DNA of 25,967 bases from a virus. Lineage: Duplodnaviria; Heunggongvirae; Uroviricota; Caudoviricetes. Where the stretch lies: IMG/VR virus record IMGVR_UViG_2519899560_000026, positions 1 to 25,967 of that record; one strand, 5' to 3'. How positions within the stretch are numbered: position 1 is the stretch's first letter; every line of letters begins with the position of its first letter. Position numbers: made by a program. Below, in pieces: positions 12,001 to 18,000 of this stretch.

Positions 12001-15000
12001 CTACAGGAAAGACGTTTCCCAGAAGCGATAAACTTGCACAACTATCAGTAATTAGTGGTTATCCACAATCCTGGTTTTTGGGTGAAGACACCTCATCAAC
12101 ACTTTCTTCAGCTGAAAAACACCATACAAGAGAAGACAGCGTTGTGTTCAATGTACTGGATGTTGAATTCAGCTGCGGCGACGGAACTCATGTTCGGGGA
12201 GATCTAATTGATGTTGTACGCTCAATAGAACTTGATCCTGAATATGCCCGCCGCCTGGTCGGTAACAGAGCATTCAAGAACATAGAAATTGGTAACGCCA
12301 GAGGGGACAGCATGGCCCCAACAATCTCCCCAGGGGACTTGCTGTTTTTAGATAAAACAGTAACTTATTTTGACGGTGATGGCATTTATGCATTTTGCTT
12401 TGATGGCGAATGTTACATCAAACGACTTCAAAAAATTGGAAGCAAGATCATGGTCTTATCAGACAATCCCAACTATCAGCCATGGAGCATCGAAAAAGAG
12501 GGAATGGCGCTGCTATATATCCAGTCAAAAGTCATCTCATCGGTACCATTCAATATCAACAGATTTGGTTAGTTATTGATTTTAAATTAAATTATTGGTC
12601 ACACATTACAAAAAAATCAAGTTTATCAATTTTTGATTGACACGCGTTTTCCTGATACATAATATCTCACCATCAATTATATATTGATTAACTTCAACTT
12701 AGAATTGCATGGTGATGATATGGAAGCCTTACAAACAACACCAAAAACATGTAGCCTCAATACTTACAACAAGGTTTTATGTGATGATTTAGACCTCGAT
12801 TCTTTTGCATTAACCATCGCAAACCTGCTCAGTGCTGTTCGCACCTTCAACCTCCTGGATGATACGCGATTAAAAGAGGTTGGGTTTGATGTGCTGGAAT
12901 TTACTCATGAATATGCTTTAGCGATCGCATCGACAAAACAACAACATTCTATTCGCTCAGGCAACAAGATAGCCTGCATACGCACCAAACGTGAAGCCTG
13001 CGGCTTAACAACTGCCGAACTCGCCAGGCTGCTCGATCTCGATGAAGAAATTATCATCCAGTGGGAGAGCGGAGAGTACGAACCAACCATCAGCATGCTT
13101 ATCCCCCTGGCAAACGTCCTGGGATGCGATCCGCTTTCTCTGCTGAGTGAAAACAATACCGCAGTACCTGTGCGCGTAAATGCTCCTGAAGCCCATATGG
13201 AAAGTATTGGCACACGCATCAAAAGCGCACGTAAAAAACTGGGATTAACCGAATCTGATCTTGCCCGCATGATTAATACCTATAGCGACCCCATAAATGA
13301 CTGGGAATGCGGCATCCATGAAGTTCCTGCTGATCAGATAGTACCACTGGCCAGTGCTCTTAATTGTGACCTGATGTGGTTGTTAACAGGCAAATCAGAA
13401 GCAAAGGAGTAACAACAATGACTGGCAATATCCATGATAAGTATGAAGGCTTATGCCTGGCACCGGATTCCTTTGCAAACAATATCCATAATTTATTATG
13501 CGCAGTTGTTGTATTACAAATGTCAGACAACGACGCAATAAAAAGAACAGGTGATGAAGTTCTTGAATTTGCACGTTGCTATGCTGAAGCAGCTGCTGAA
13601 AAAGAACTAACCAGTTAAATAGAACAAGTCATCTCCGGATAATATATTACGGCTTAATCGCCGGGGATTATCACACCCTTAATCCACAGGAGGTTTTATA
13701 TGACCTTTATAAAACATAAGGCATCACACAAAACAGCCTGCCTTATTGCACAGCACGGGAAAAATTACATGCATATTGCCTGCTTGTTTCTGCGTAAAGC
13801 ATACGGGAGATAATAATGCATCAGAAAACAGCAGAACACGAACAAACCAGAGTATTGCTGACCATCAAAAACGGGAAAGTAGTATTAATTCGTCATGTTC
13901 ATGACGATGAATTTGTAGGAAATCTTTCAACATTCCTGTTTATTGCAGAAAAGGCAGGATATGACGTTATTGCACCAGCAGATGAAGATGAGGAATAAAT
14001 TTCATGCAATACGCTGAATTCCAGGCTGAAGCAACAGCCAATGGTATACAAACAGGCAGTATGACTATTGATTATCACGACGCCATACGCCGTCTGGATG
14101 CTGGAGAATTCGATACTCCTAATGTGCGAGGTTTACGTATCCTTCAGTGTCTCGCGCAAGCTGACGAAGCAGGATTACTGGGAAAACTTCCGGTTGAGAT
14201 GAAGGTTGCCCAGTGGCGATGGTTGTATGTGACGACATTCATCAACGAAGAAGAAGACAAGAACGGCACAATTGATGTCCCGAATGAACACGGAACAACA
14301 GATCGCGCCGTAATATATAACGGGAAGCATGGGGTTATGACGATATATCCCGGCCCCATTCGGTTTGCCTTACAGCAGTATATTGAATGGAATTTAATTC
14401 AAAAATACGGCGAGGCAGAAGGAATGGGTAGAGCGCTGTTTCTTTATCAGAAAATGCTCATTACATACCCAGATAAAGGTTTCATTGTTTCAGACATGGG
14501 GCGAGAAGGGCTTGAACTCCTTCTGGATGAAATGATTAACGACCTGAATACTCATGGTATGCCAGAAGGCCAGTGACACATTAAATATTAAGAAGAATAT
14601 AATTCTTCCGTTTTTTACTAACCATTTATATGAAAAACAACCGTGAATTAAGCAGAGTAAAACTGCTTTTAATCCTTGCCACAGTACTGACAATAACAGA
14701 AATCATTATTCTCTTTATTGCGCTGTCTGTCAGTTAAAAATATCGGGATACCACATACCAATGAGACTGTATTTCACAATAGTAATTTTACTGGCAATTA
14801 TCGCATGCATTTACGGATTACTCGTTCCGTTCCTTATATCCATGAAGGATACGATAGCAGTTACTTCTGGCTTTGCACTGGCGTTTCTGACCCCGCCCTG
14901 CATTTATGCCATTTACAAGGGTCTTTCTTTCACTAAGGATAAAAAATGAAAAAAATTATTTTTGCTTTAGCCATTGTTCTGCCGACCATTAGCCTTGTCG

Positions 15001-18000
15001 GCTGCGATCGCGTTGAACCCGGTAATGTTGGCATCAAAGTAAATAAACTGGGCGACGATAAAGGCGTCGGTGAGGTGGTCGGTGTTGGTCGCTACTGGAC
15101 TGGCTGGAATACTGAAGTTTACATCTTCCCAACCTTCAAACAAATGAAGACCTACGATGAGCCGTTCAGCTTCCAGATGAGTGACGGCACAACCATCGGC
15201 TATCACATCGGTGTTGCCTACAAAGTTGATCCATCCAAAGTTACCACGGTGTTTCAGACCTACCGCAAAGGCGTGGATGACATTACCGCCACTGACCTGC
15301 GCCAGAAGATCGCCGACGCACTCAATCGACTGGCCAGCAAAATGACCACCGACAAATTTATCGACGGCGGCAAGTCTGAACTACTGGATACCGCACTTAA
15401 AGACATTCAGGAAGAGATGTCACCCATCGGCATTCAGGTAATGAGCCTCTCTTATGTAGGTAAACCGGAATACCCGCCAACCGTTATCGACAGCATTAAC
15501 GCCAAAGTCACGGCAAACCAGAAAACCCTGCAGCGCGAACAGGAAGTCAAGCAACGTGAAGCGGAGGCCAACATGCTACGTGCAGAAGCTGCCGGACAGG
15601 CTGATGCCATTCGAACAAAAGCCCTGGCAGAAGCCGATGCCATTCGTTTACGCGGCGAAGCTCTGCGCCAGAACCCTGGCGTCATGGAGCTGGAAGCCAT
15701 CAACAAGTGGAACGGTACACTGCCGCAATACATGACCAGTGGTGCCAATACACCATTTATCCAGATTAAATAACTTACACGCCCGGCAAACCGCCGGGTT
15801 AATGGAAAATCAGATGAACAACCAGAATACTCAACCGCAAATAATGAACTATGACCCGAATCTGACGTCGTGCGGACGCATGGCAAAACAAACCGTTCGA
15901 TTAACTTTCGGACTATGGGAATACCGCGAAACATTCGAAGTTACTGTCGGCGGCAATCTGACCGGACTGGATGTTATCAATTGCGCTATTGAAAGCCTGT
16001 ACGCAACGCTGCCTTATGAAGAAGTCCTGGATGAGCGCACAGGGGAAACGGATATCATGGCCACCATTAATATTGGCGAACTGATATGCCAGGATGAAGA
16101 CCTGTCCGGGGAACTCTGGCTTGCCGGGATGCTTATCTCAGCAGAAATTATCAGCATTGAACCCGCTACAAACATACGGCTCTGAAGTTCTCACTATTCA
16201 GAGAGCAGGAGAAAAAATGTTCGCTCTGATTAATCAGGGACAACTGTATACCGACAGTGCCGGTTACCCGGTAAAAATTGTTCGCTGCATAAACAACACC
16301 GTGTTGTACAGAAGATGTGAAGCGAATGTTTGAAGTGTGGTGCCACTGCCGTGGATGAAAGTTTTATGAGGTTGGCATGCAGACAATCATCTATCAGATA
16401 ACCCCCAGCAAATGGTGTACGGAGAGAGTCCTCATTGCATCAACAGGGCTAAAGCCTGGCACCATCGAGCGAGCCAGAAGAAAGTCATGGATGCAGGGAA
16501 AAGAATACCGCCATTACGCTGTAGAAGGTGATCCGGGGCATTACAGTGAATGCCTGTACAACATCGAAGAAATTATGCGATGGATCGAAAACCAGAAACA
16601 ACCAGGTGCCAAAAATGCAAGTTCCGGTTAACCTGTTAATGCTCCTGGACGTCTGGGAGGTTTTATGAGTAACGCATCATACCCGACAGGCGTTGAAAAC
16701 CATGGAGGATCACTCCGTATATGGTTTCACTATAATGGCAAACGTGTCAGAGAAAACCTCGGTGTTCCTGACACCGCCAAAAACCGGAAGATCGCTGGTG
16801 AGCTTCGCACTTCTGTTTGTTTTGCAATCAGAATGGGGAGTTTCGACTACGCCGCGCAGTTCCCTAATTCCCCTAACCTGAAACACTTTGGTCTGGGAAA
16901 AAGAGAGATAACCGTTAAGGCACTTTCGGAAAAATGGTTGGACCTTAAGAAAATTGAGATAGGAAGTAATGCATTCAGTCGGTATCAATCCGTGGTGAGA
17001 AACATGCTTCCTCGCATAGGGGAAAAACGTCTTGCTTCGTCGGTAACAAAGGAAGATTTACTGTTTATCAGGAAAGATTTATTGACCGGGTATCATAATC
17101 TTTCTAACGGAAAAACAACGCCGATTAAAGGGAGGTCAGTAGTTACGGTTAATTACTACATGACGACAATTGCAGGAATGTTTCAATTTGCGGCTGATAA
17201 CGGCTATATCGTGTCAAACCCATTTAACGGCCTGACACCATTAAAGAGATCCAGAACAGAACCAGATCCGCTCACACGTGACGAATTTATTCGTTTTATT
17301 GATGCCTGTCACCATCAACAAACAAAAAACCTGTGGTCCTTAGCAGTATACACAGGCATTCGTCACGGTGAGCTAATATCTCTCGCCTGGGAGGATATTG
17401 ATTTAAAAGCTAAAACAATGACTATCCGTCGTAATTATACAAAACTCGGGGAGTTCACTCTACCAAAAACAGAAGCGGGAACTGATCGTGTTATTCATCT
17501 TGTTCAACCAGCTGTTGATGCCCTGAAAAGCCAGGCTGAAATGACAAGACTTGGCCCTCAGTATCAAATTGACGTCAAGCTTCGGGAGTTCGGTCGCACC
17601 GCACGCCATGAATGCACGTTTGTTTTTAATCCGCAACTGGTAAAAAAATGCCAGCAAGTCGGTCACCACTATAAAGCAGATTCCATCAGAGATTCCTGGG
17701 CATCTGCATTAAGGCGAGCAGGACTGCGGCACAGAAAAGCCTATCAGTCCAGGCATACTTATGCCTGTTGGGCATTATCGGCAGGAGCGAATCCAAGCTT
17801 CATAGCAAACCAAATGGGCCATGCAAATGCACAAATGGTATTCAACGTTTACGGAGCATGGATGAAAGATAACAATATCGGGCAAATAGAACTACTCAAT
17901 AAGCAGTTGACGGAGAGTGTCCCATACATGCCCCATAGAGCCAGACTCTGAAATAATATCTTTAAATATCAGTTGTTTTAATGGTAGTTGCCGTCACATT

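Follow-up and report, generated by a model that had tools for sequence, protein, structure and literature searches.

The closest described relatives of the phage protein considered here are HflK and HflC, which are its best match in both sequence and fold among solved structures, at 16-19% identity. HflK and HflC are two paralogous subunits, anchored by an uncleaved N-terminal transmembrane (TM) helix, in which an SPFH domain on the periplasmic side of the inner membrane is accompanied by a long helix and a C-terminal cap segment. Within the HflK/C cage, the SPFH domains of HflK are in contact with FtsH (PMC12048511). An analogy between HflK/C and phage SPFH genes, centered on lysogeny, has already been published as speculation (PMC8540360, PMC4936722), and the conflict between this analogy and the existence of obligately lytic carriers was noted by its authors (PMC8540360).

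Two other groups of proteins invite comparison. In SPFH-NfeD pairs, such as QmcA-YbbJ, YqiK-YqiJ and the archaeal stomatin-STOPP pair, a small membrane-protein gene lies directly upstream of the SPFH gene and is co-translated with it, and the partner contains an NfeD/OB-fold domain. The solved QmcA-YbbJ complex forms a cage around the partner, and both QmcA and YqiK face the cytoplasm. Envelope superinfection-exclusion proteins, including T4 Imm/Sp, P22 SieA, HK97 gp15, T5 Llp, phi80 Cor and TP-J34 Ltp, are small, lack an enzymatic domain, and are either inner-membrane proteins or lipoproteins, in many cases encoded by early or accessory genes. No SPFH protein is known to us among them.

Here, we report on a two-gene unit in a phiP27-like Stx2a prophage located at yecE. 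The window, meaning the whole stretch of DNA that was analysed, is 25,967 nucleotides long and comprises positions 1 to 25,967 of IMG/VR record IMGVR_UViG_2519899560_000026. The unit, consisting of orf62 and an SPFH gene, lies 3' of cI within an operon that extends to xis-int. The features of the region are as follows.

14577..14760, no strand: AT-rich spacer 5' of orf62, 31% GC, confined to phiP27-type contexts
14630..14737, + strand: orf35, a hydrophobic ORF open over 35 codons; it is probably not a gene and lies outside the conserved module
14761..14949, + strand: orf62, a 62-aa, two-TM inner-membrane protein (from PHROG 1130, hydropathy and homologues)
14946..14949, + strand: ATGA overlap of the orf62 stop and SPFH start, indicating translational coupling
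14946..15773, + strand: SPFH/Band 7 lipoprotein precursor, 275 aa (from Pfam Band_7, PHROG 200 and RefSeq WP_000720014.1)
14946..15005, + strand: lipoprotein signal peptide (residues 1-19) and Cys20, the predicted lipidation site, with lipobox L-V-G-C
15009..15569, + strand: SPFH domain, residues 22-208, membrane-proximal alpha/beta (from the Pfam envelope and AF2)
15477..15671, + strand: long Ala/Glu-rich helix, residues 178-242 (from AF2), counterpart of the coiled-coil wall of SPFH cages
15705..15725, + strand: C-terminal motif K-W-N-G-x-L-P, residues 254-260 (from conservation), disordered in the monomer model
15782..15798, + strand: GC-rich hairpin CCCGGC-AAACC-GCCGGG, 9 nt past the SPFH stop, with no T-run

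A lipobox-bearing SPFH protein

The initial annotation had proposed a lipobox-bearing SPFH protein on the prophage, and profile searching bears this out. The protein matches Pfam Band_7 (PF01145) over residues 22-208 with 108.8 bits (E = 4e-31, cutoff 23.6) and PHROG 200, a family labelled "lipoprotein" (E = 4.9e-112), while RefSeq names WP_000720014.1 "SPFH domain-containing protein". The signal peptide, MKKIIFALAIVLPTISLVGC, has the expected layout: the N-terminus reads MKK-IIFALAIVLPTIS-LVGC, with a basic n-region and a hydrophobic h-region followed by the lipobox LVGC at residues 17-20, for which our criterion was the Lgt/LspA substrate pattern [LVI][ASTVI][GAS]C. The lipobox Cys is kept in 19 of 21 close homologues and in approximately two thirds of 150 representatives. 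In an alignment of the close family (A2) the signal peptide varies, while the Cys and the Asp that follows it are nearly invariant, with Asp21 at position +2 conserved in at least 90% of sequences. Asp at +2 is a Lol-avoidance signal that retains lipoproteins in the inner membrane, an effect that the +3 residue, here Arg, can modulate. In a distant branch of the family the +2 residue is Ser. At the nucleotide level, homology of the SPFH gene to P88 and P1-like phages starts near the lipobox Cys codon.

The AF2 monomer model is of moderate confidence overall (pLDDT 77.7, pTM 0.57), with strands at residues 20-94 and 163-175, helices at 96-161 and the long helix at 178-242; pLDDT is 80-94 for residues 20-175 and below 50 for residues 245-275. 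The best Foldseek matches of the model are HflC (4e-14), prohibitin, erlin and HflK, and its full-length matches also include stomatin, flotillin and QmcA (8z5g among them); the probability is 1.00 for HflC, HflK, prohibitin, erlin, stomatin and flotillin. By sequence, the best matches among solved structures are HflK, prohibitin-2 and HflC, and the long helix aligns to the coiled-coil regions of HflK and prohibitin-2. The protein is therefore predicted to adopt a full-length, cage-type fold closest to HflC/HflK, prohibitin and erlin. Near the C-terminus, W255 and G257 are invariant and P260 is conserved in at least 90% of sequences that are 34-61% identical to the query, and we infer that the K-W-N-G-x-L-P segment is an oligomerisation "cap". 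Its disorder in the monomer model would fit assembly into a membrane-attached ring or cage.

The phage protein thus resembles HflK/HflC in its SPFH domain, long helix and cap segment, and probably in the periplasmic location of the SPFH domain. It differs in that there is a single SPFH gene, in that a cleavable lipoprotein signal peptide and lipid anchor take the place of the N-terminal TM helix, in that the partner is a 62-aa, two-TM protein and not a second paralogue, and in being phage-borne and accessory.

A two-helix partner coupled to the SPFH gene

The product of orf62 matches PHROG 1130, labelled "membrane protein" (E = 7.3e-23). Its hydropathy profile contains two TM helices, at about residues 3-24 and 32-52, separated by a short conserved loop, P-F-L-I-S-M-K-D-T, that is predicted to be periplasmic, and followed by a basic C-terminal tail; the predicted topology is N-in, C-in. 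Its 35 database homologues reach down to 63% identity, and Y4, Y18, P23, I26, S27 and G37 are invariant in their alignment. The lipoprotein signal of the SPFH protein and the two helices of orf62 agree with the make-up initially suggested for the locus. A search for an NfeD-like partner, on the other hand, came back empty: orf62 has no Pfam match at E<=0.1, is too short for an OB fold, and its two TM helices fill the 62 residues. Unlike the partners in SPFH-NfeD pairs, it is without an NfeD/OB-fold domain.

The suggested translational coupling of the two genes is well supported, as the ATGA overlap is kept in 86 of 88 related loci, and the SPFH start is preceded by a good Shine-Dalgarno (SD) sequence, AAGGA, at 14935-14939. 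A small membrane-protein gene that is directly upstream and co-translated is the arrangement of the SPFH-NfeD pairs. In many distant homologues, the two-TM module is fused to the N-terminus of the SPFH protein, and an HMM of orf62 matches the N-terminal extension in 14 of 19 fused representatives. These fused homologues have three predicted TM helices ahead of the SPFH domain, with basic residues located N-terminally and in the loop between TM2 and TM3. For one of these homologues, an AF2 model (pLDDT 84.3) has helices at residues 3-28, 33-57 and 61-77. The fusion indicates that the two proteins are likely to work together, and the three helices combined with the pattern of basic residues place the SPFH domain outside the cytoplasm. 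Lipidation of Cys20 and retention by Asp at +2 would likewise leave the SPFH domain facing the periplasm, as in HflK/C. Therefore, on the basis of sequence and models, the phage SPFH protein probably faces the periplasm, in contrast to the cytoplasm-facing QmcA and YqiK.

Where the genes are separate, N4-like, Cyrano and GAP31 phages have a two-TM ORF with the orf62-type loop motif upstream of the SPFH gene. An upstream two-TM ORF is found in at least 37 of 60 distant viral loci, although an adjacent partner is missing from some homologues (TL, Panisse and 13-23 of the 60 distant loci). Across diverse viral loci, the survey of neighbourhoods that had been proposed at the outset found the two-TM, orf62-type gene to be the sole recurrent neighbor of the SPFH gene. 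Being coupled to it, co-inherited with it and often fused to it in relatives, orf62 is, at the level of sequence, the obligate genetic partner of the SPFH gene. In the literature that we searched, PHROG 200 and PHROG 1130 are nowhere described as obligate partners, and neither their fusion nor the periplasmic topology is mentioned.

Genomic context and limits of the module

Homology with other prophages begins at query position 194, corresponding to position 14770 of the window, and sequence comparison accordingly puts the left edge of the conserved module at the orf62 start. This leaves orf35 outside. All three ORFs that had initially been annotated are present on the + strand at the positions given, but the case for the 35-aa hydrophobic ORF as a gene did not hold. 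A hydrophobic stretch follows its basic N-terminus, and it is open in all 47 loci that carry it (18 distinct sequences), always at 35 codons, as might be anticipated for a third, single-pass membrane subunit of a three-gene module. However, no SD was found upstream; the synonymous fraction of its variable sites (0.32 versus 0.26 expected, with out-of-frame controls close by at 0.19) shows no enrichment of the coding type; and it is missing from 42 of 88 loci, about half of the close ones, and from every context that is not phiP27-like, including P1-like, P2-like and virulent phages. None of five E. coli RefSeq records inspected annotates it, nor does the phiP27 record, and its exact sequence does not occur in a collection of 15 billion proteins in which orf62 is found on at least 998 contigs. 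It is embedded in the 31% GC spacer, where a chance ORF of 35 codons is not unusual. Judged from its sequence, orf35 is probably not a gene, and a role as third subunit is improbable.

A consensus scan of the + strand of the spacer (14577-14760) found no sigma-70-like site, which is weak evidence. The early gene upstream of the pair overlaps it in P88 and MS8345, and there is thus no space for a separate promoter in these phages. Downstream, the hairpin at 15782..15798 was not scored as a terminator, differs in sequence in P88 and is missing in a P1-like phage; sequence comparison thus marks it as specific to its context and outside the mobile unit. In the prophage the pair belongs to the leftward early operon, in an accessory region near int. 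In lambda, this place in the gene order is taken by cIII. Directly 3' of cI is a putative OL-like repeat, and the OL/PL assignment depends on this one 20-nt repeat. Of the ORFs in the immunity and early-left region that were scanned, none matched the Pfam families Phage_CII or Lambda_CIII, and searching PADLOC-DB 2.0 at E<=0.1 gave no match for the SPFH protein, orf62, orf35 or the two flanking genes.

Distribution and selection

Homologues, located on prophages and plasmids, are present in 536 of 5426 E. coli genomes and are therefore accessory and mobile and not housekeeping genes. SPFH relatives occur in 413 phage records, mostly of virulent phages, and in all six phage genomes inspected the orf62-SPFH pair is part of early or DNA-metabolism gene clusters. 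The pair is common to temperate and virulent phages, and moves between unrelated phage types: the mature SPFH protein retains ~90-95% amino acid identity (86-92% at the nucleotide level) across lambdoid, P1-like and P2-like phages. Synonymous changes account for 0.54 of variable sites in orf62 (0.24 expected) and for 0.48 in the mature SPFH sequence (0.23 expected), so that both are, by this measure, under purifying selection.

Both proteins are, by profile match, plain members of phage families that were already annotated, PHROG 200 and PHROG 1130, under labels as varied as "lipoprotein", "band 7 protein", "putative serine protease" and "transposase fusion protein"; carriers of these labels include phiP27 (L05), P88, RCS47, and N4-like, Felix O1-like and Bruynoghevirus phages. 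A haloarchaeal virus has a weak SPFH homologue. At least one fused homologue is located in an ordinary bacterial chromosome, indicating that the family is not purely viral.

Alternative explanations

Given the relationship to HflK/C, the phage protein could mimic or perturb that complex, alter the degradation by FtsH of regulators of the CII/CIII type and so bias the choice between lysis and lysogeny. HflK and HflC are indeed its best solved relatives, the predicted orientation is the same, the pair sits where cIII does in lambda, and FtsH does touch the HflK SPFH domains inside the cage (PMC12048511). Nevertheless, most of the family belongs to virulent phages, which make no lysogeny decision, and this weakens any lysogeny-specific role. 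Furthermore, the scanned ORFs include no CII or CIII match, the protein falls far short of the HflK and HflC equivalog models (TIGR01933, 19.9 versus 159.4 bits; TIGR01932, 24.2 versus 134.4 bits), and it is a single gene with a lipid anchor and not a K/C pair with TM helices. We regard this explanation as very unlikely. Marginally less likely again is that orf62 is a holin-like or GhoT-like pore peptide restrained by the SPFH cage, serving as a lysis-timing or suicide switch. Class II holins are comparable to orf62 in size, in having two TM helices and in their basic tail, but orf62 lies outside the lysis cassette in every genome inspected, is situated among early genes, has no holin label in PHROG, and is fused 1:1 to SPFH in many homologues, including the chromosomal one.

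Defence of the lysogen against other phages by a prophage-expressed module, whether through abortive infection or superinfection exclusion and along the lines of Imm/Sp, SieA, HK97 gp15, Llp/Cor and Ltp, deserves more weight but is still unlikely. The envelope location, small size, lack of an enzymatic domain, position in an accessory region near int and mobility between unrelated phage types are all shared with or suited to such a role, and in PhiSH19 the SPFH gene adjoins a gene annotated "superinfection exclusion protein" (PMC3220722). Set against this, PHROG and PADLOC profile searches detected no sequence relationship to the envelope exclusion proteins, and the phage SPFH family is much better conserved than they are and has a far wider distribution; very high conservation under purifying selection is unlike that of arms-race proteins. 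A classical moron is made less likely by the lack of a PADLOC match and of a detected promoter or terminator belonging to the pair itself, together with the overlap with early genes upstream of it in P88 and MS8345. Given how widespread the pair is in virulent phages, exclusion would need to act during lytic growth, with which these observations are compatible.

Proposed function

The reading that we prefer, and to which we give about an even chance, is that orf62 and the SPFH protein form a two-gene phage membrane module, in which an SPFH cage sits on the inner membrane, faces the periplasm and acts on a conserved host target. We infer the oligomerisation, localisation and target of the SPFH protein as follows. 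Judging from its signal sequence, the protein would be exported, lipidated on Cys20 and held in the inner membrane by Asp at +2. As every solved full-length SPFH protein does, it would then oligomerise by way of the long helix and the K-W-N-G-x-L-P segment, building a ring or dome that rests against the inner membrane from outside. The two-TM hairpins of orf62 may form a transmembrane fence, and their short P-x-L-I-S-x-K-D-T loop would touch the membrane-proximal surface of the SPFH protein. With lower confidence, we propose that expression of the module coincides with that of early lytic genes and is not that of a lysogenic-conversion moron, and, also with lower confidence, that it encloses a patch of membrane and thereby acts on a conserved component of the host inner membrane.

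The leading candidate for this component is FtsH, which might be caged or shielded as it is by HflK/C; this is a possible but doubtful assignment. FtsH-contact residues could not be mapped on the SPFH protein, and the weak haloarchaeal-virus homologue speaks against a role that depends strictly on FtsH, since haloarchaea, as far as we are aware, have no FtsH. A somewhat less probable second candidate is that the module blocks DNA entry by superinfecting phages, and a third, general membrane stabilisation during infection, is less probable still. The high conservation of the mature SPFH protein and the purifying selection on it are atypical of proteins engaged in an arms race with other phages, and suggest instead that the module may be directed at the host.

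Genomic context of the SPFH gene

The stx2B, stx2A and Q-like antiterminator genes all fall inside the window, which marks it as the toxin-bearing arm of a phiP27-like Stx2a prophage; the integration site is yecE. Over 14580-15800 the sequence matches E. coli O145 RM9872, further STEC genomes and Stx2a-converting phages (Stx2_14040, for example) at 100% identity, and phiP27 at 93.5%. The order of genes is given below.

Table. Gene order in the window (coordinates, strand, feature).
1511-1780, minus: stx2B
1792-2751, minus: stx2A
no coordinates given, minus: DNA methyltransferase gene
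4756-5151, minus: Q or Q-like antiterminator gene
no coordinates given, minus: DnaB-like, DnaC-like and O-like replication genes
no coordinates given, minus: Ash/Rha-type regulator genes
11493-11750, minus: cro-like gene
11853-12572, plus: cI-like repressor gene (HTH plus S24)
12684-13412, plus: double-HTH regulator gene
between the double-HTH regulator and the orf62-SPFH pair, plus: three small genes of unknown function
14761-14949, plus: orf62
14946-15773, plus: SPFH gene
15802-16185, plus: DUF5406 gene (PHROG 3409), directly after the SPFH gene
16377-16631, plus: xis
16665-17951, plus: int
past int: host DNA with the yecE remnant, yecN, cmoA, cmoB and torZ

The DUF5406 gene lies downstream of the SPFH gene in the window, in phiP27-type prophages and in strain MS8345. 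In strain Combat2C1 an ORF6N gene takes its place, indicating that the DUF5406 gene is outside the module.

The SPFH protein

The initial annotation had described a lipobox-bearing SPFH-like protein, which is confirmed by a Band_7 profile match and by the lipobox LVGC with Asp at position +2. In the HMM search for Band_7/SPFH that had been proposed as a check, the 275-aa product of 14946-15773 scored 108.8 bits against Pfam Band_7 (cutoff 23.6). The same ORF matches PHROG 200, annotated "lipoprotein" (E 5e-112), and is named "SPFH domain-containing protein" in RefSeq. Its N-terminus, MKKIIFALAIVLPTISLVGC followed by DR, is a textbook lipoprotein signal peptide in which LVGC precedes the Asp, and in alignment A2 of 20 close homologues (75-95% identity) the signal peptide is free to vary and the Cys and Asp are nearly invariant. 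Asp at +2 is the established inner-membrane retention rule for lipoproteins. Export, lipidation and retention in the inner membrane are thus predicted for this protein from the lipobox and the Asp, and the Arg at +3 could weaken the retention signal. In one sublineage of the same alignment (P0108 and P0120, from contigs of approximately 78-111 kb) a Tyr replaces the lipobox Cys (GIIGYDRVEPG); these proteins have lost the lipidation site and presumably kept an uncleaved signal anchor.

The AF2 model of the window protein (pLDDT 77.7) consists of an SPFH alpha/beta domain, a long helix at residues 178-242 and a disordered C-terminus, within which lies the family motif K-W-N-G-x-L-P, with W255 and G257 invariant and P260 nearly so. 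When searched with Foldseek the model aligned over its full length with HflC (4e-14), prohibitin, erlin and HflK, followed by stomatin, flotillin, QmcA and major vault protein. The closest solved relatives by sequence are HflK, prohibitin-2 and HflC (E approximately 1e-3), and a fold search of BFVD returned generic "Band 7" labels only. Homologues carry public labels as varied as "serine protease", "putative serine protease", "transposase fusion protein", "lipoprotein" and "Membrane protease family protein"; those that name a serine protease, a membrane protease or a transposase look like propagated errors, because the profiles used found Band_7 only and gave no support for either activity.

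A small membrane protein is the partner of the SPFH protein

Three plus-strand ORFs had been proposed at this locus, and all three are present (14630-14737, 14761-14949 and 14946-15773); they correspond, however, to two genes, SPFH and orf62, and not to three. The first of them, the 35-codon hydrophobic orf35, had been put forward as a possible further ORF and fails every test applied, whether Shine-Dalgarno sequence, substitution pattern, distribution or annotation. No Shine-Dalgarno sequence was found upstream of orf35, the synonymous fraction of its variable sites is 0.32 against 0.26 expected, similar to out-of-frame controls, and it is absent from 42 of 88 loci and from every context that is not phiP27-type. 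It is annotated neither in the five RefSeq E. coli records inspected nor in the phiP27 record, and its exact sequence was not found in a collection of 15 billion proteins in which orf62 is present on at least 998 contigs. It sits in a spacer of 31% GC, where an ORF of this kind is unremarkable.

The 62-aa two-helix membrane ORF that was said to be coupled to the SPFH gene, on the other hand, is a real gene, the stop codon of which overlaps the SPFH start codon (ATGA) in 86 of 88 related loci. Its product has two hydrophobic helices followed by a basic C-terminal tail and matches PHROG 1130 ("membrane protein"), and 35 database homologues, with identity down to 63%, are found in E. coli, Salmonella, Klebsiella and Enterobacter. 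Synonymous changes make up 0.54 of variable sites in orf62 (0.24 expected) and 0.48 in mature SPFH (0.23 expected), an approximately two-fold enrichment.

Our main new result is that orf62 is a genuine partner of the SPFH protein. An exhaustive search of 1.84 billion cluster representatives returned 2,807 SPFH relatives, including 213 at E<=1e-30, and about 19 of the best 150 are longer proteins (320-392 aa) that carry two extra N-terminal transmembrane (TM) helices before a signal-peptide-like segment. A profile of the orf62 family matches this N-terminal extension in 14 of the 19, and these 14 share the inter-helix loop motif P-x-[LM]-[IV]-S-x-x-[STD]; the corresponding loop of orf62 in the window reads P-F-L-I-S-M-K-D-T. 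Some of the fusions have no internal Met and are therefore true single polypeptides. One of them, whose contig also encodes a P22-type coat, portal and small terminase, gave a confident AF2 model (pLDDT 84.3) with helices at 3-28, 33-57 and 61-77, then the SPFH domain and a 60-residue helix. Where the two proteins are encoded separately, the gene for the same 2-TM protein lies 5' of the SPFH gene in the P2-like phage P88, in a P1-like phage-plasmid, in an N4-like Klebsiella phage, in phage Cyrano and, one gene removed, in Cronobacter phage GAP31, and it is likewise found ahead of SPFH in at least 37 of the 60 distant viral contigs. A second partner cluster (10 loci) has the variant loop P-Y-Y-F-S-S. 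The partner is not universal, as the small gene upstream of SPFH is a different one in Pseudomonas phage TL and in Erwinia phage Panisse.

A conserved third gene in the module was rejected: all-against-all clustering of the neighbours at 66 viral loci revealed no recurrent gene besides the 2-TM partner. Also rejected was a frameshift fusion at the A-rich ATGA junction, as the orf62-cluster members of 110-217 aa are plain SPFH fragments that were lumped in. An NfeD-like partner, for which a search had been proposed, was likewise rejected, orf62 having no Pfam match. In alignment A6, which includes distant and fused homologues (for example P0372 and P0163), the lipobox Cys is invariant even after the third, internal TM helix of the fused polypeptide, which suggests that a polytopic precursor may be processed at an internal lipobox or that the Cys has another role.

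Distribution and mobility

The SPFH gene is found in 536 of 5,426 complete E. coli genomes (approximately 10%), at 619 places of which 420 are chromosomal and 199 are on plasmids, and IMG/VR holds 360 close relatives. Nucleotide homology to P88 and to P1-like phages starts near the lipobox Cys codon and stops some 30 nt short of the stop codon, so that mature SPFH is approximately 90-95% identical in amino acid sequence across lambdoid, P2-like and P1-like phages, whereas the signal peptide and small partner of the P88 and P1-like versions are just 20-29% identical to those of the window. In other lambdoid prophages homology begins at the orf62 start codon. The P1-like MH422554 (locus L003, 3731-4775) encodes the same mature SPFH and, alongside it, a divergent partner of 78 aa, and in P1-like phage-plasmids the pair occupies a variable region between the DNA methylase and a DnaB-like helicase, beside a tRNA-like sequence.

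Relatives at the protein level were identified in 413 of 50,697 phage records, mostly of virulent phages, among them N4-like, Vequintavirinae, Bruynoghevirus, Felix O1-like, jumbo, crAss-like and phiCbK-like phages, and a weak match was seen in a haloarchaeal tailed virus. Inspection of individual genomes placed the pair in early or DNA-metabolism clusters, and in none of them within a lysis or structural module. In the Vi01-like Salmonella phage PhiSH19 the gene annotated as SPFH/Band 7 adjoins a "superinfection exclusion protein" gene, a single guilt-by-association hint (PMC3220722). Outside phages, the metagenome-assembled genome GCA_040752695.1 has a fused 2-TM-SPFH gene (locus L095, 10001-11044) flanked by large surface-repeat proteins on one side and a sigma-54 two-component pair on the other; this non-phage chromosomal setting of at least one fused homologue indicates that the family has cellular members.

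Expression context

No sigma-70-like site was found in the plus-strand spacer upstream of orf62, and in P88 and E. coli MS8345 the pair overlaps an upstream early gene. A hairpin 3' of the SPFH stop codon was rejected as a terminator or as part of the mobile unit, since it has no T-run and its sequence varies between contexts. A 20-nt repeat, TACA..AAAATCAAGTT.AT, is common to the cI/cro intergenic region (11829-11848) and the gap just past cI (12607-12626), with an inverted partial copy at 12687-12702. This arrangement suggests candidate OR and OL operators, with an OL/PL-like site after cI, in which case orf62-SPFH would be delayed-early genes of the leftward operon. The promoter, hairpin, overlap and repeat data together are weak evidence, in agreement with the early placement of the pair in virulent phages.

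Topology and possible function

Topology and lipoprotein prediction, which the initial annotation had proposed, gave a lipoprotein signal peptide with lipobox and Asp at +2 for the window protein, and a periplasmic SPFH domain for the fusions. The fused homologues offer independent support, in sequence and model, for an SPFH domain that is probably periplasmic and tied to the inner membrane, because they carry three TM helices, and basic residues mark both the N-terminus and the loop joining TM2 to TM3. Because all of the relatives named by Foldseek and sequence form a ring or dome on a membrane, the SPFH protein would, by analogy, build a dome that sits on the inner membrane's outer face, and the orf62 hairpins would provide a transmembrane fence. 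The likeliest account is an early-expressed, periplasm-facing dome and 2-TM fence that enclose a patch of inner membrane and act on a conserved host component. Within this account, it is possible, if tentatively so, that FtsH is caged or shielded, given the same orientation, the closest structural class and the contacts that FtsH makes with the SPFH domains of HflK inside the HflK/C cage (PMC12048511). A block to the entry of superinfecting DNA is somewhat more doubtful, and general membrane stabilization would be the least probable of the three.

It had been suggested that the phage protein mimics or perturbs HflK/HflC and, through FtsH and the stability of CII and CIII, could bias the decision between lysis and lysogeny. 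The idea is in print as speculation (2016 and 2021; PMC4936722, PMC8540360), and the 2021 authors had already pointed to obligately lytic carriers of the gene (PMC8540360). It is further weakened here by the dominance of virulent phages among carriers, by a scan of ORFs in the immunity and early-left region that matched neither lambda CII nor CIII, and by the failure of the SPFH protein in the HflK and HflC equivalog models. The pair may instead be a defence moron expressed from the prophage. However, PADLOC returned no matches, which rejects membership of a known defence system, the promoter evidence gives no support, and very high conservation is a poor fit with such a role. Gifsy-1 GiPD474, a "widely distributed prophage defence protein", is an ATPase unrelated to the pair.

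No functional study of any phage SPFH protein turned up in our literature search; a paper of June 2026 states that why phages carry the gene "remains unclear", and a published survey of P. aeruginosa SPFH proteins leaves out the phage and lipoprotein types. The SPFH protein belongs to the SPFH superfamily and PHROG 200, and orf62 to PHROG 1130; the former is neither HflK nor HflC, since it was tested for defining features of these and lacks them, and the two do not make up an SPFH-NfeD pair, for want of an NfeD domain. Like HflK/HflC and SPFH-NfeD systems, the pair has a membrane partner encoded upstream and presumably forms a cage; unlike them, it has a lipid anchor, a predicted periplasmic orientation with a non-NfeD 2-TM partner, and phage carriage. 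Annotation of the SPFH gene and the HflK/C speculation were already known. In the literature searched we did not find described the obligate pairing and natural fusions of the two families, the predicted topology, the mosaic boundary at the lipobox, or the conclusion that the module has no specific link to lysogeny.

SPFH genes are among the commoner unexplained phage genes, and PHROG 200 is a large family. Together, a two-gene unit (sometimes fused) with a predictable topology, its independence of lysogeny and the high conservation of the SPFH gene between unrelated types of phage replace a vague annotation with something concrete to clone and test. Should no phenotype emerge, the pair stays an ordinary accessory gene; should the target be FtsH or the route of DNA entry, the result would have implications for how phages take over the envelope and for Stx prophage biology. 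One reading, which we consider rather unlikely, is that orf62-SPFH is the Enterobacterial form of a pan-phage two-component periplasmic SPFH cage with which temperate and virulent phages alike seize a patch of inner membrane early, perhaps caging FtsH or sealing the membrane against further DNA entry, with a partner family unrelated to NfeD and, in some lineages, a single polytopic precursor that keeps, and is maybe processed at, an internal lipobox. If true, both the class of phage host-takeover machinery and the architecture of SPFH with its partner would be new.
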